Shown: piece after piece, positions 13,107 through 26,093 of the stretch | Position numbering within the stretch: the stretch's first letter is position 1 | How the letters are laid out: every line of letters begins with the position of its first letter | Assembly (NCBI GenBank): GCA_965248435.1 | Contig: OZ252100.1 | Location: forward strand, 2,880,001-2,944,000 | Direction: 5' to 3' | Length of the DNA: 64,000 nucleotides | Source of the DNA: Candidatus Latescibacterota bacterium | GTDB taxonomy: Bacteria > Latescibacterota > UBA2968 > GCA-2709665 | Notes under the pieces: model-generated | What the model was told of the DNA's origin: nothing | The model's database searches: none | Seen by the model: only the letters and a program-made list of their open reading frames with translations | Made by a program: the position numbers and the translations under genes

Positions 13107-13115
13107 AATACGACA

Positions 13116-13170
13116 GGAGTGGCAATTTGGGGCATATTGCAGCCACTTTAAACAAGCTGCTAAAAAGCCG
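13116..13170 (+). ncRNA. SAM-II (SAM_alpha-like) riboswitch aptamer
   Basis: GGAGUGGCAAUUUGGGGCAUAUUGCAGCCACUUUAAACAAGCUGCUAAAAAG has the SAM-II hallmarks: P1 AGUGGC/GCCACU, loop AUUU...UUGCA and 3' GCUAAA. Confidence 0.82.
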
Positions 13171-13206
13171 CCGAGAGCCCGGCCTCTAGTCGGGTCTCTT
13201 TGCTCT

Positions 13207-22231: not shown

Positions 22232-22305
22232 AATCCCAAATCCGCACTCCACAACGCCTCACGTTCCCCGGTACCCGTGTTTTTATTCCCCGGTACCCGG
22301 TCTTT
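22232..22305. repeat. Dispersed intergenic repeat, copy 2 (overlaps recJ 3' end)
   Basis: Matches 5131-5199. Confidence 0.75.
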
Positions 22306-23986
22306 CACACGGCCGCATGTCTTTTACTTCAAGCTCCACTTTCTGATAACCATTCCACGTATTCTTGACCAGTGAAAACGCCACATCCACTCGTTTGCCC
22401 GCAGAGAGGAGTTTGGCGAGGTCTCCCTGTCGCCACCAGATCGCCCCGAGAACCTGCTTATCCATCTCTAGCTTCATCTTGAGGTGTGTCCCGCCATCAC
22501 CTACCGTATCCACGGCGCGAATGTCACACCCTTTCACCATAAAGCACGGCGATTCGTTCAAAGGCCCGAACGGTTCCAGCGCATCGATGAGCGACACCGA
22601 TCTCAGCGAGATGTCAGAAGGAGCCAGCTCCGCATCGATCTCCAGTCGAGGGGTGAGCGCCTCATCCGTCAGGGATTGATTGGCGTCCTGGATCAGCCGG
22701 TCGCGAAAGGTCTCGAAGTTCTTCGCCGGCAACGTGAAGCCGGCAGCTGCCGCGTGGCCCCCGAACTCGCTAAGCAGATCGGCGCATTTGAAAATCGCCT
22801 CGAAAATATTGTAGCCGCCCGAAGATCGCGCCGAGCCGGTAAACGTGCCGTCCTTTCTGACCCCTGTGCAGATGGCCGATGGGCGCGCATACGCCTCCGA
22901 TAAACGGCCGGCGATCAGACCGATGACACCCAGATGCCAATCCTCACCCGGAACGACCAGGATCCTGTCCCGAAACAGCTCACCTCTTTCCACCTGGCCG
23001 CGCGCCTCGTCGATGCCCGCGTTCTGCAGTTCCATCCTTTGTGCATTCAGCGCGTTCAACGCTTCGGCCAAACCTTGAGCCTTGGCTTCGTCCGGGCTCC
23101 GAAGAAGGTCCAGAGCAAGCTCAGCTGAGCCTAGCCGGCCCGCGCTGTTGATTCTGGGACCGAGGAAGAACGCGATCGCCGTCGTATTCACAGGTTTGTC
23201 CGCCGAACCCGCCACCTCTTTGAGCGCCCGAAGTCCGGGTCTCGCCGTCTTGTCCATCACCCGCATCCCTCTCCGGGTCAGCAGTCGGTTTTCGGAAACC
23301 ATCGGCGCAACATCCGCCACGGTTCCTAGCGCAACCAGGTCCAGGAGAGAATTCAGGTAGGGCACCCTCTCTTCACGGCTCATTAGATCCATCGAAGCGG
23401 CCTGGACCACCTTAAAGGCAACACCCACGGCCGCCAGACCCTTAAAAGCGTAACCACAATCCGATCGGTTCGGGTTCACGATAGCTACAGCGGCCGGCAG
23501 TCGTTCCTGCGGATGGTGGTGGTCGACCACCACGACGTCCACGCCCGCCTCACGCGCGATGTCGATCGCCTCGAACGAGGAAATGCCGTTGTCGGCCGTC
23601 AGGATCAGCTGCGCGCCTTCTGCCAGAGCACGCTCGACCCCGGGTGGCTTCATTCCGTAGCCGTCTCGAAATCGATCAGGGAGGAGGGCCACCGCATCAA
23701 TCCCGATACGCTCGAGGAAGTCCATCAATACCGCAGTACTCGTCACCCCGTCGACATCGTAGTCGCCGAACACGACCACGCGCTCACCCTTCCTCCGGGC
23801 ATCTAGAATCCGACTCACCGCACGGTCCATGTCCTGCATCTTAAGGGGGTCCAGTAGAACCTCGGGAGCGTCCGAGATATCCTCGCGGGTCAGCGATCGG
23901 TTCTTCAGAAGCATATCCATCAAGGAATTGTAGGCATCCCGATGCCTGAGATGCCATATGGGATACTGCTGCATCGTTGCCGTCAA
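22283..23986 (-). CDS. recJ: ssDNA exonuclease RecJ
   Basis: GDYDVDGVTS, TADNG, DHH, ALGTVAD, GPRINSAGR, GSARS, GGHAAAAG. Confidence 0.96.
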   Translation of the reverse strand: MTATMQQYPIWHLRHRDAYNSLMDMLLKNRSLTREDISDAPEVLLDPLKMQDMDRAVSRILDARRKGERVVVFGDYDVDGVTSTAVLMDFLERIGIDAVALLPDRFRDGYGMKPPGVERALAEGAQLILTADNGISSFEAIDIAREAGVDVVVVDHHHPQERLPAAVAIVNPNRSDCGYAFKGLAAVGVAFKVVQAASMDLMSREERVPYLNSLLDLVALGTVADVAPMVSENRLLTRRGMRVMDKTARPGLRALKEVAGSADKPVNTTAIAFFLGPRINSAGRLGSAELALDLLRSPDEAKAQGLAEALNALNAQRMELQNAGIDEARGQVERGELFRDRILVVPGEDWHLGVIGLIAGRLSEAYARPSAICTGVRKDGTFTGSARSSGGYNIFEAIFKCADLLSEFGGHAAAAGFTLPAKNFETFRDRLIQDANQSLTDEALTPRLEIDAELAPSDISLRSVSLIDALEPFGPLNESPCFMVKGCDIRAVDTVGDGGTHLKMKLEMDKQVLGAIWWRQGDLAKLLSAGKRVDVAFSLVKNTWNGYQKVELEVKDMRPCERPGTGE

Positions 23987-24200
23987 AGCTTGAGAAATAG
24001 CCTTCTCCTTCTCTTAGAAACTTAACCCCTATGCCGGGGCTACGGGTCACCAAGTCCCCTCTGAGGAGGGGTATTTCGGCGAAACCGATCGGTCATAATA
24101 GATTTCGGTCACTCCAATTCCGGAGGCAGTGCAGTACGTCATCGGCTCCAGACTCACGACGTATAACCAAACAGTGATCACCAAAATCCCCTCCTGGGTC

Positions 24201-24265
24201 GGGGTGGGTCACAATAGGGTTTCTGCCCATCAGACCCACCCCTAAATCCCCCCCCCAAGGAGGGC
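24201..24265. repeat. REP-like inverted palindrome pair
   Basis: GGGGTGGGTC (24201-24210) / GACCCACCCC (24233-24242), followed by TAAATCCCC...AAGGAGGG; a related CCCCTCTGAGGAGGGG lies near 24056. Confidence 0.5.
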
Positions 24266-24359
24266 ACTCTAACAATCGCACCAAACGCTTTCCGGGGTGT
24301 CCCGGCAAGGCCGGGACGGGGTGGGAGCGGTGAACATTCAAATAAATTGGAAAAAGGAC

Positions 24360-24387
24360 TAAAGTTTGCTCAAGTCAAAGCCGATAC
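24360..24387 (+). promoter_or_regulatory. Sigma-28 (FliA)-type promoter
   Basis: TAAAGTTT-12 nt-GCCGATAC versus consensus TAAAGTTT-N11-GCCGATAA. Confidence 0.65.
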
Positions 24388-24394
24388 TGGGGAT

Positions 24395-24668
24395 AGGGAG
24401 TAGAACTCCCTTCCCTGGAAGCAGCCCTCGGACGGACTCGGGGAACCCGAACGCCCGACGCACACGCCTCATCCGGGATGATGGGGGAGAAAATCGCAGG
24501 AAGTGAAACAGAAGGGGAAAGGGAAAAAACAAAGCCGACCTCACCCCCGGCAGGCCGAATCGCCTAAAGGGGATGCGGAACCGGCGCAAAGCAGGGAGGC
24601 AAGCCGTCGAAGCAGGAAGCCGCTTGGTCCGGCCCCCCTTTCGCCTAGGGAAGGGGGGTCCCTGTTTG
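24395..24668 (+). ncRNA. Candidate GGA-rich CsrB/RsmZ-like small RNA
   Basis: No credible ORF; 15 GGA trinucleotides including two CAGGAAG sites; sigma-28-type promoter upstream; strong 3' hairpin. Confidence 0.5.
24631..24668 (+). terminator. Terminator-like hairpin ending the candidate sRNA
   Basis: GGCCCCCCTTTC / GGAAGGGGGGTC 12-bp stem followed by CCTGTTTG (weak U-tract). Confidence 0.55.
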
Positions 24669-24699
24669 TCTGGGAATGAGGTCAGCTTAACACTATAGA

Positions 24700-24726
24700 C
24701 TATCGGCATTTAGCGTTCGATCTTTA
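24700..24726 (-). promoter_or_regulatory. Sigma-28-type promoter, antisense to the candidate sRNA
   Basis: Minus strand TAAA-15 nt-GCCGATAG. Confidence 0.6.
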
Positions 24727-24741
24727 CCGATGTCTTTGGGT

Positions 24742-24768
24742 TAAATCCCCGAGAAAACTAGCCGACCC
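24742..24768 (+). promoter_or_regulatory. Weaker sigma-28-type promoter upstream of the receiver gene
   Basis: TAAA-15 nt-GCCGACCC. Confidence 0.45.
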
Positions 24769-24925
24769 CACCCGTTCCGGGCACCGATTCCTTCAAAATC
24801 TACACAATCTGAACCATCTCGGCGTCCTTCGCCTTTGGCGACTGCGTTGTCTGGTGTATATTTGGGCGATCGTGTCATATCAGCACGTCCTCAAAGCCCC
24901 CATCACCTATCCCACGGTTCCGATC

Positions 24926-25318
24926 TTGCCCAGAATCCTCCTGGCGGAAGATGCCGTTTCGGCGATGATTCTTGCCCGTGTCCTCTTCGACGACCCCGAC
25001 CTCCAGATCGACGTCGTCACGGACGGTCGCCGTGCGCTGGAGCGCCTGAATCAGGCCCCCAAAGCCTTCGATCTGGTCATCCTGGGCTATGACGTGCCTG
25101 GGGTCAGCGCCCCCGAATGCGTCGCCTTCATCAAACAGATGTTCCGCCGACTTCCCATCCTCGTCCTCACAGAATCTCTCGAAGAAAACCAACTCAGCGA
25201 GCTGGCCGAACTTGGCATTCGGCAGGATCGTGTCCTGGAAAAGCCGATCGAGCCCGAGACCTTCGCGGCCAGAGTCAAAGGAGTCCTGTCCGAAGGAAAT
25301 CGGTTCAGGCCCCCATAA
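24926..25318 (+). CDS. Single-domain atypical (aspartate-less) response regulator receiver
   Basis: RILLAED...FDLVILGYDVPG...ILVLT...LEKP; phospho-Asp position is Gly. Start uncertain (24854 or 24926). Confidence 0.75.
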   Translation: MPRILLAEDAVSAMILARVLFDDPDLQIDVVTDGRRALERLNQAPKAFDLVILGYDVPGVSAPECVAFIKQMFRRLPILVLTESLEENQLSELAELGIRQDRVLEKPIEPETFAARVKGVLSEGNRFRPP

Positions 25319-26093
25319 TATTGTAGCCCCCATCCACGTGCAGCACCTCTCCCGTAACCCCGCTGGAAAGATCGCTCAAAAGAAACAGTCCCGTCTTCCC
25401 GACTTCCTCCTGGGTGATGTTCCGCCCCAGCGGCGCGCGATCCTGATACATCTGGAGAAAATCGGTGAACCCCTTCACGCCCCTCGCGGAGACCGTGCTG
25501 ATCGGGCCTGCCGAAAGTGCGTTTACGCGGATGTTCCGGGGCCCAAGCTCATAAGCAAGCTGTCGAACCGCGTGTTCCAGCGCAGCTTTCGCACTCCCCA
25601 TCACATTGTAGGACCGAAAGACTTTTTCAGAGGCCATATAGGTCAGCGTCAGGATCGTGCCGCCATCAGTCATCAGGGACGCGGCGGCCCGGGTCATCCT
25701 CACGAATGAATAGGCGCTGATATCCAGCGCGATCTGATAGGCCTCACGCGAGGTCTCCATAAAGGCACCCTGCAGGGCCTCGCGGGGCGCGAACGCGATG
25801 CAGTGTGCGAAGCAATCCAGCTGCCCGACCTCGCTCTTGACGAAATCGAACAGGCCCTGGATTTGATCATCTTCCCCGACATTGCAGGCTTCAGGAGGAA
25901 TAACAACGTCGTCGCCCCATCCTTTCAGGTCTGTCAGCTTCTGGATGCTCCCGCGTTCTCGATCCCCCACGTAAGGCAGGATCAGCTTTGCCCCGGCAGA
26001 ATACAAGGCCTGCGCAATCCCCCAGGCGATGCTCCATTTATTCGCAACGCTGGCGACCACGGCAACCTTGCCGCTCAAATCAATCCCGTACAT
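25305..26093 (-). CDS. fabI: Enoyl-ACP reductase
   Basis: VANKWSIAWGIA, HCIAFAP, YNVMGSAKAALE, RVNALSAGPI. Confidence 0.93.
   Translation of the reverse strand: MYGIDLSGKVAVVASVANKWSIAWGIAQALYSAGAKLILPYVGDRERGSIQKLTDLKGWGDDVVIPPEACNVGEDDQIQGLFDFVKSEVGQLDCFAHCIAFAPREALQGAFMETSREAYQIALDISAYSFVRMTRAAASLMTDGGTILTLTYMASEKVFRSYNVMGSAKAALEHAVRQLAYELGPRNIRVNALSAGPISTVSARGVKGFTDFLQMYQDRAPLGRNITQEEVGKTGLFLLSDLSSGVTGEVLHVDGGYNIMGA

Follow-up and report, generated by a model that had tools for sequence, protein, structure and literature searches.

Candidate sense and antisense small RNAs between facing sigma-28 promoters beside recJ in a Latescibacterota genome

Introduction

In Escherichia coli, the small RNAs that are transcribed with the flagellar sigma factor sigma-28 depend on Hfq, and in Bacillus subtilis the leader of the flagellin gene hag carries CsrA sites and is subject to a FliW partner switch. 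To our knowledge, descriptions of sigma-28-dependent small RNAs, and likewise of cis-encoded small-RNA antagonists, come only from a few cultured Proteobacteria and Campylobacterota. In E. coli, the RNAs under sigma-28 include UhpU, MotR, FliX, and FlgO, which derive from untranslated regions (UTRs) (PMC10578931), and Campylobacter jejuni makes the sigma-28-dependent small RNA CJnc170, also named FlmR (PMC11187230). The C. jejuni RNAs CJnc190 and CJnc180 form an antisense small-RNA pair with a role for RNase III, an intramolecular duplex, and a cis-encoded antagonist (PMC8687705). In the same species, the flaA flagellin leader has CsrA sites under a FliW partner switch (PMC4894983). The RNAs CsrB, CsrC, and RsmX-Z sequester CsrA (PMC7652899, PMC4894983). 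Here, we analyze a 64,000-nucleotide stretch of the genome of an uncultured marine bacterium of the Latescibacterota, or candidate phylum WS3 (hereafter the window, with positions counted from its first letter) and describe a locus beside recJ in which two facing sigma-28 promoters are predicted to drive a sense/antisense pair of small RNAs.

Like CJnc190/CJnc180, this locus has overlapping small RNAs predicted from facing promoters, for which we propose a trans regulator and a cis-encoded antagonist; one of the RNAs likewise holds an intramolecular duplex, RNase III is the expected processor, and the host lacks Hfq. The two systems have no relation in sequence or in Rfam, and they differ in that both promoters here are of the sigma-28 type, that the closing helix brings together the extreme 5ʹ and 3ʹ ends of the antisense RNA, and that processing, targets, and antagonism are predicted in our case. 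With UhpU, MotR, FliX, FlgO, and CJnc170/FlmR, the locus shares the theme of late flagellar sigma small RNAs that tune flagellar genes post-transcriptionally, again as a prediction. Unlike the E. coli set, it stands alone as an intergenic gene, belongs to a candidate phylum without Hfq, and has an antisense partner that the same sigma factor would transcribe. It resembles CsrB, CsrC, and RsmX-Z in being non-coding and purine-rich, with some looped GGA motifs, a terminator, and relatives that have CsrA. It departs from them in the lack of CsrA in this genome, the lack of a GGA excess or an Rfam match, the near absence of AAGGA-type sites (most copies have none), and a sigma-28 promoter where theirs is of the GacA/UvrY type. 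The proposed target, like flaA and hag, is a long sigma-28 flagellin leader with a GGA hairpin and a GGA-containing Shine-Dalgarno (SD) sequence, in genomes with the gene order flgL-fliW-csrA. Unlike the flaA leader as set out in the available parts of its description (PMC4894983), it has an additional invariant box, CCUGACCAAUC, between the CsrA-type sites, complementary to the small-RNA family. Full-text literature searches returned no description of this RNA, of any Latescibacterota small RNA, or of an RNA antagonist in FliW-type systems.

Results

Two sigma-28 promoters face each other in one intergenic region

The source genome (5.67 Mb in 2 contigs, 56.6% G+C, 97.5% complete; G000) encodes FliA, with a profile score of 281.8 bits that lies above the cut-off, and seven or eight flagellin-family genes. 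The strict sigma-28 motif TAAA-N15-17-GCCGATA occurs 14 times on the two strands of the genome, against about 5 occurrences expected by our own estimate from base composition. Three of the 14 sit 205-248 nt upstream of flagellin genes, and two fall in the single intergenic region studied here, face to face. An earlier reading of the sequence alone had noted a near-consensus FliA promoter on the plus strand, and it is indeed one of the strict matches (TAAAGTTT at 24360-24367, a 12-nt spacer, and GCCGATAC at 24380-24387). Written as TAAAG-N15-GCCGATA, it has the same spacing as the flagellin promoter at C1:1555686, and it is kept in all 12 homologous loci described below with 11 or 12 of the 12 consensus letters. 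On this comparative sequence evidence, the predicted plus promoter is more than a chance match. The facing minus promoter recurs in 11 of the 12 loci, where its -10 box lies 31-48 nt past the plus terminator; the locus of G008 is the one without it.

The spacer of the plus promoter also contains CTCAAG (window 24368-24375) in all 12 loci, unlike the flagellin promoters of the same genome. This motif may be a regulator site or a piece of a divergent recJ promoter.

Homologous loci accompany FliA within one order

A DNA search of 40 relatives with the region returned nothing beyond the promoter in G038 and 25 nt in G004, so we sought homologues by synteny upstream of recJ, promoter pattern, and covariance models (model R1, cmsearch). 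This gathered 12 homologous loci in seven genera, all with the plus promoter, body, and terminator conserved, and covariance-model matches reached 102-179 bits. Alignment A3, which came from cmsearch, took in five weak reverse-strand rows and was not used. R1 matched the locus in this order alone; weak R1 matches in G034 and G075 looked like bare terminator hairpins and were not counted as homologues. The idea of a sigma-28-driven non-coding RNA outside the Gammaproteobacteria, first raised from the sequence alone, is thus borne out by the FliA match, by the 12 loci in seven genera, and by two metatranscriptome contigs (see below).

Within the order, FliA scored above the cut-off in 12 of 53 genomes, with a partial match in G038 besides. 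The locus was found in 12 of these 13 genomes with a FliA match and in none of the 40 others. The exception, G036 (82% complete, 480 contigs), has a FliA match and showed the paralogue described below but not the locus. Phylum-wide, 62 of 151 genomes have FliA, including 34 of the 64 in family f3.

The predicted plus-strand RNA ends in a conserved terminator and encodes no shared small protein

The body of the predicted plus RNA (24395-24668) has the composition A72, C79, G93, T30 and holds 15 GGA motifs, including two CAGGAAG sites. These figures agree with the initial description of about 275 nt of purine-skewed sequence that has no credible open reading frame (ORF) and ends in a 12-bp GC hairpin, in which 8 of the 12 pairs are G-C and CCTGTTTGTC follows directly. 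Homologous plus RNAs are 218-349 nt long, with a purine-rich 5ʹ half that is variable between clades. In 11 of 12 loci, it is on the plus strand that the terminator hairpin is the more stable, and its G-U pairs also lie there; the inner hairpins are better on the plus strand in 9 of 12. The minimum free energy (MFE) of the whole plus RNA was -110.6 kcal/mol, compared with -106.8 +/- 5.1 kcal/mol in dinucleotide shuffles (n = 200).

The 116-aa minus-strand ORF at 24359..24709 had no Pfam match, and no small ORF was conserved between clades among 60 ORFs of at least 15 aa from the 12 loci. Matches between clades mostly covered 7-12 residues, with one longer match (46 residues at 41% identity, E = 6e-5) that joins a plus-strand ORF of G091 to one of G128. 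For lack of a shared small ORF, we rejected a small-protein reading and put the G091/G128 match down to purine-rich sequence. Rfam 15 gave no match at gathering score in this region of the window, and at E<=10 over 23900-25000 it gave only three chance-level matches to unrelated families. The paralogue loci and the flagellin-leader loci were also without an Rfam match.

The 3ʹ module belongs to a predicted family of paralogous small RNAs

The 3ʹ half of the plus RNA contains a module that recurs elsewhere in these genomes. In relatives, its hairpin H1 reads GAAGCC...GGCUUC and is followed by one or two further hairpins, and the match of the copy in the window to model R2 was 87.9 bits. R2 found the module at least once per flagellated genome of the order, typically in the 3ʹUTR of a ~330-aa protein without a Pfam family. 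In family f4, a 3ʹUTR copy is followed by a stand-alone copy behind a TTGACA-17-TATTCT sigma-70-like promoter (L135, L136), and G000 has an orphan copy at C1:1930745-1930890 between dnaE-like and aroA-like genes. G002 has a match of 35 bits. Weak R2 matches in G099, G137, G046, and G055 covered only the terminator part of the model (positions 109-163) and were not counted. The paralogues keep the plus orientation and have their own terminators, without an antisense promoter. Since their hairpin arms, including H2 and H3, differ between copies by compensatory and G-U changes that fit the plus strand, the plus orientation appears to be the functional one for the module. The single-stranded motif CG(C/A)UUGGUCA, which we treat as a candidate seed, was unpaired in folds; the G000 seed has C where 9 of 12 a-type copies have A. 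Judged by these comparisons, the module is a predicted small-RNA family with a conserved unpaired motif.

The protein that hosts the 3ʹUTR copies begins MPIFxSRFSPERS... (loci L105, L106, L109, L111, and L112). A separate strict sigma-28 promoter, similar in its spacer (TAAAGATTGCTCAAC), belongs to the G000 homologue of this protein (C1:1304660-1305759). The motif GGATAGGG, found near the start of the plus RNA, also opens the ~390-nt leader at C1:1304660, and a FliA/WhiG-like sigma gene lies downstream of the homologue.

The predicted antisense RNA is closed by a covarying long-range helix

The minus promoter would produce an RNA that overlaps the plus RNA at about 24524-24670, as reckoned from predicted ends. 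Its terminator-like site runs from 24551 to 24534 on the minus strand and is followed by TTTGTTTTTT, and its U tract corresponds to the A-rich tract at 24523-24533 of the plus strand. Two segments, M and D, are predicted to pair as the closing helix of this RNA. The G000 M/D duplex on the minus strand has an energy of -40.9 kcal/mol (RNAduplex), and the corresponding duplexes reach -33 to -46 kcal/mol in seven of eight loci. The helix occurs in four clade-specific versions that covary (M against the reverse complement of D), and across nine genomes its transition mismatches make G-U pairs on the minus strand in 23 cases versus 7 on the plus strand. It was found in both the MFE fold and the centroid, with at least 17 pairs predicted. 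The MFE of the minus RNA was -76.9 kcal/mol, compared with -65.2 +/- 4.2 kcal/mol in shuffles (z = -2.77), and 1 of 200 shuffles was as good. A multi-branch closed architecture appeared in six of seven single-sequence folds of the minus RNA; eight loci were taken, of which L086 was skipped, the motif that sets the 3ʹ end not being found there. The stretch from M to D, which equals the minus RNA, is the best conserved part of the locus.

Because of register shifts, RNAalifold on the MAFFT alignments A1 and A2 missed the long-range helix, and a column-wise count of pairs in A4 was abandoned; the closing helix was judged from per-genome duplexes instead. As the hairpins and the terminator favor the plus strand while the helix wobbles and the z-score favor the minus strand, we conclude from these comparisons that both strands carry signs of RNA-level selection.

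The locus lies outside the CsrB/Rsm families

The sequence-only reading had interpreted the RNA as a CsrA sponge that frees flagellin mRNA, and had named csrA, fliW, fliA, and flagellin as the genes to look for in the genome. The latter two were found, and the former two were not. Even at E<=1, the CsrA profile PF02599 was without a match in G000, and the G004 CsrA as a tblastn query gave nothing below E = 1; for FliW, neither a profile search, again at E<=1, nor tblastn with the protein of a relative returned a match in G000. The 15 GGA motifs compare with 10.9 +/- 2.3 in dinucleotide shuffles, and 6% of 200 shuffles reach 15. Two GGA motifs lie in hairpin loops of the MFE fold, compared with 0.94 +/- 0.96 in shuffles, 21.5% of which reach two. 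The GGA enrichment, called only moderate in the original proposal, is no more than composition gives. GGA was above shuffles in none of the 12 homologous plus RNAs, with a fraction of 0.05-0.77 of 300 shuffles reaching the observed count, and no curated Csr/Rsm covariance model in Rfam matched. Comparison with relatives, also suggested at that stage, upheld the conservation of promoter, body, and terminator, but the GGA loops that two genera have are lost in a third CsrA-bearing genus. Because csrA and fliW are lacking and GGA is no better than in shuffles, the sponge reading is refuted for this genome. The locus lies outside the CsrB/Rsm families, whose defining features, among those examined, it does not have.

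A box in the flagellin leader is complementary to the small-RNA motif

In G000, the leader of the orthologous flagellin gene (C1:1555442, minus strand) is of the sigma-28 type, ~220 nt long, and carries CsrA-type sites, namely AGGAGGUGA, an GGCAAGGAUGCC hairpin, and ACAAGGAGGUU at the SD. Across eight aligned leaders from six genera, CCTGACCAATC is the sole invariant block in the variable center, and the exact 11-mer of this box was present in all 10 genomes of the order that were examined. The CCUGACCAAUC box lies between the CsrA-type sites and is complementary to the single-stranded motif of the small RNAs (UUGGUCA / CGCUUGGUCA(G)). The complementarity extends over 10 nt for the paralogue (CGAUUGGUCAG) and 9 nt for most copies of this locus (UUGGUCAGG). 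In family f4, seed and box are both slightly changed, with a 9-nt complementarity kept. Leaders of the type GGCAAGGAYGCC-N20-50-ACAAGGAGG were found in 11 of 151 genomes of the phylum, all 11 of which bear the module, and in none of the 64 genomes of f3. The minus RNA by construction carries a copy of the box (CCGGACCAAGCGG in G000), which was mostly unpaired in folds. A target search of G000 with the exact complement of the seed, or with one-mismatch versions of it, singled out no gene.

The CsrA-type sites of the leader (C1:1555460-1555690; L156, L157, L158, and L166-L169) are fully conserved, even in the csrA-less G000.

Metatranscriptome contigs and RNA-processing genes

Four metatranscriptome runs were compared over 23800-25400. 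Two marine runs, from two studies, each yielded one short contig confined to the RNA; the first measures 178 nt (24427-24611) and the second 207 nt (24465-24678), their identity is 90-95%, and neither run had anything on recJ or the response-regulator gene. The contigs extend into the portion covered by the plus RNA alone; they are unstranded, and their ends differ from transcript ends. The runs X18 and X19 gave fabI and a repeat only and have no bearing on the RNA. DNA of the stretch is also present in seawater and marine metagenomes. The genome encodes RNase III (PF14622, 117.8 bits), and Hfq and ProQ were not found in it.

Neighboring genes, repeats, and flagellar gene content

The coordinates of the features are collected in the table below. 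The interval had at first been taken to separate recJ from fabI. Both genes do flank it, but a single-domain response-regulator gene also lies between them, with fabI next after it. This gene stands 3ʹ of the RNA locus in G004, G008, G038, G091, G123, G126, and G128, and a protein search with it returned only distant receivers of 24-32% identity from many phyla. Positions 24183-24305, outside the RNA, are a dispersed ~120-nt repeat with at least 10 copies across the chromosome (85-99% identity), while 24330-24900 is wholly single-copy in the genome. A second short repeat lies at 24294-24330; the repeats have enlarged the spacer between recJ and the RNA, which measures ~30-60 nt in relatives.

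Twelve more frames of ~290-335 aa scored 84-142 bits against the FliA/WhiG model, under its cut-off, and make up an unusually large set of group-3-like sigma paralogues. In the relative G004, the gene order is flgL-fliW-csrA. The G000 flgL homologue (C1:1566868-1569174; L123:9869-12175, minus) keeps Flagellin_N, lacks the C-terminal ~100 residues of the G004 protein, and runs on as a methyltransferase-like domain, with large glycosyltransferase/TPR genes next in line. In the sister species G001, FliA, the RNA, and the regulator gene have all been lost; given this loss of FliA, the genus may be losing motility. Elsewhere in the window, a SAM-II (SAM_alpha, RF00521) riboswitch match above the gathering score (41.7 bits) lies at 13109-13183 on the plus strand.

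Table. Positions in the window of the predicted RNAs, their signals, and the neighboring genes
Feature	Position	Strand	Details
Sigma-28 (FliA) promoter of the plus RNA, predicted	24360..24386	+	TAAAG 24360-24364, GCCGATA 24380-24386, GCTCAAGT in the spacer
Plus RNA, predicted, ~277 nt	24394..24670	+	5ʹ end placed ~7 nt past the -10 box and 3ʹ end at the T tract
5ʹ hairpin GGGAG-TAGAA-CTCCC within the GGATAGGG motif	24396..24410	+	MFE fold and alignment
Hairpin CTCGGGGAACCCGA presenting GGAA	24437..24450	+	CTCGGGGAA common to G000, G004, G008, and G128
Conserved 3ʹ module of the plus RNA	24517..24671	+	H1 around the M segment, more hairpins, single-stranded motif, terminator; alignment A5
Single-stranded motif CCGCTTGGTCCGG, candidate seed	24620..24632	+	family consensus CGCUUGGUCAG; best conserved among the unpaired columns in A1 and A5
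Intrinsic terminator of the plus RNA	24631..24670	+	12-bp hairpin 24631-24660, T tract TGTTTGT 24664-24670
Facing sigma-28 promoter, predicted	24701..24726	-	TAAAG 24726->24722, GCCGATA 24707->24701; strict genome-wide match
Minus RNA, predicted, ~170 nt	24524..24694	-	antisense to the 3ʹ half of the plus RNA; multi-branch, closed by D'-M', then U tract
M segment AAGCCGACCTCACCCCCGG	24532..24550	.	arm of the long-range helix; 3ʹ arm on the minus RNA, with the U tract after it
D segment CTGGGAATGAGGTCAGCTT	24670..24688	.	complementary to M; 5ʹ arm of the closing helix of the minus RNA
recJ	22283..23986	-	Pfam DHH, DHHA1, RecJ_OB; divergent neighbor, synteny kept in relatives
Single-domain response-regulator gene	24835..25318 with promoter; ORF 24854/24926-25318	+	Pfam Response_reg; conserved neighbor, outside the RNAs
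Promoter-like site of the response-regulator gene	24835-24862	+	own TGnTATATT-type promoter

Discussion

We favor, with somewhat better than even confidence, the reading that this locus encodes a flagellar-class sense/antisense small-RNA pair that acts by base pairing on the flagellin leader. The two facing sigma-28 promoters would give a ~275-nt plus RNA and a ~170-nt antisense minus RNA, such that late in flagellar assembly sigma-28 would make a trans-acting small RNA together with its antisense partner. In the flagellin leader, the site of pairing with the plus RNA and its paralogues would lie between the CsrA-type sites. The antisense partner may serve as a cis-encoded antagonist or as a target mimic, and duplexes of the two would be substrates of RNase III and be cleared by it. 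In this scheme, we infer the transcript ends, the strand of the metatranscriptome RNA, the target, and the direction of effect. The genome studied here has lost csrA and fliW, its flgL homologue is without the normal C-terminus, and its seed is substituted, so that the system in it may be drifting. A more specific form, to which we give distinctly less credence and which we put forward as a speculation, is a competition over flagellin among three RNAs under one sigma factor, namely the box-bearing mRNA, the seed-bearing small RNA, and a helix-stabilized antisense mimic that carries the box. If this were true, flagellin output would have a threshold determined by the mimic and the small RNA. 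In csrA-bearing relatives, the RNAs would be interlocked with the FliW-CsrA partner switch, and a system so far thought to be without RNA antagonists would gain an RNA layer.

Several observations weigh against a base-pairing sense/antisense pair. With its C for A, the G000 seed pairs over only 6+2 nt with the box, and as seed and box are both invariant there is no covariation between them. With RNAduplex, which takes no account of accessibility, the box was the site of the best duplex in only 3 of the 11 pairings of a small RNA with a leader, and of 14 sigma-28-downstream transcripts only the antisense partner scored above background as a target. The genome holds six copies of the exact 10-mer TGACCAATCG against about 10 expected, so this 10-mer is not rare. 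The whole plus RNA is no more stable than shuffles. The RNA ends are predictions, and the contigs are unstranded and possibly represent DNA carried in RNA libraries. As G008 is without the minus promoter and its D segment is weak, a plus RNA can occur by itself. Two mutually destroying RNAs under one sigma factor would be an odd design without some further input. Finally, the genomes are kin, so counts of loci overstate their independence.

Other readings account for parts of the evidence. The purine-rich plus RNA could titrate CsrA through GGA loops and so free flagellin mRNA in the relatives, leaving the copy here as a relic. csrA adjoins fliW in 11 of the 12 locus-bearing genomes, two genera present GGAG in three hairpin loops and share a UCGGAG(U/G)GG loop with the paralogous module, the plus RNA is richer in GGA than the antisense strand in all 12 loci (4-15 versus 2-5), and the flagellin leaders hold the classic CAAGGA hairpin and SD sites, even in G000. 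We nevertheless consider a relic sponge unlikely. This genome has neither csrA nor fliW, yet both of its promoters are perfect and its GGA count is the highest; in none of the 12 RNAs does GGA exceed dinucleotide shuffles, and the AAGGA motif of the leaders is missing from 10 of them. Genus g10 has CsrA and has lost the GGA loops, the co-occurrence with csrA cannot be separated from that with flagella, and a sponge leaves the antisense promoter and the closing helix unexplained. We hold an opposite assignment of roles within the pair to be somewhat less implausible, though still improbable. Here the minus RNA would be the main trans regulator, acting through pyrimidine-rich CUCC-type loops or its CUGACCAA box, for example as a sponge of the paralogous small RNAs, and the plus RNA would be its antagonist. 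The minus RNA is the better structured of the two (z = -2.77, compared with about -0.7 for the plus RNA), its extent coincides with the M-to-D stretch that is best conserved in the locus, the wobbles of the closing helix favor its strand, and its box copy is mostly unpaired in folds. It is the plus strand, however, on which the internal hairpins (9 of 12) and the terminator (11 of 12) are better, and it is the plus orientation that is conserved in the paralogues, each with a terminator of its own and none with an antisense promoter. G008 keeps the plus unit alone.

The promoter, terminator, and facing promoter might instead form a cis-acting device, either a leader and attenuator or an interference unit for the regulator gene or recJ, with no trans-acting RNA. 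In every locus inspected, the regulator gene does lie 3ʹ of the RNA in the same orientation; G002 is without the RNA body, and there a decayed sigma-28 box that keeps 10 of 12 letters directly abuts this gene; and recJ starts ~30-60 nt from the plus promoter in relatives, where the CTCAAG spacer motif is conserved without an explanation. Against such a device stand the strong terminator with its T tract, the regulator gene's own conserved TGnTATATT promoter downstream of the minus promoter, the occurrence of the module at unrelated places, both in 3ʹUTRs and in stand-alone copies with sigma-70-like promoters, and RNA contigs that lie on the RNA with none on the regulator gene. We judge it to be as doubtful as the relic sponge. 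That the locus has no function, its signals being chance promoter-like motifs in a long intergenic region invaded by repeats, seems to us very improbable indeed: dispersed repeats have enlarged the region and the fold energy of the plus RNA is ordinary, but promoters, module, and helix are conserved over seven genera, the covariance-model matches reach 102-179 bits, and the RNA part is single-copy.

For this lineage, the sense/antisense locus, the paralogous module, and the flagellin-leader box make three candidate RNA families without an Rfam match, and they offer a concrete candidate pair of small RNA and mRNA next to CsrA sites. They also show how the genes that a genome holds or lacks can exclude a plausible "CsrB-like" reading. 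The locus would extend both sigma-28-dependent small RNAs and cis-encoded small-RNA antagonists to an uncultured phylum of the FCB group that is without Hfq and ProQ, and would join the two under a single sigma factor.

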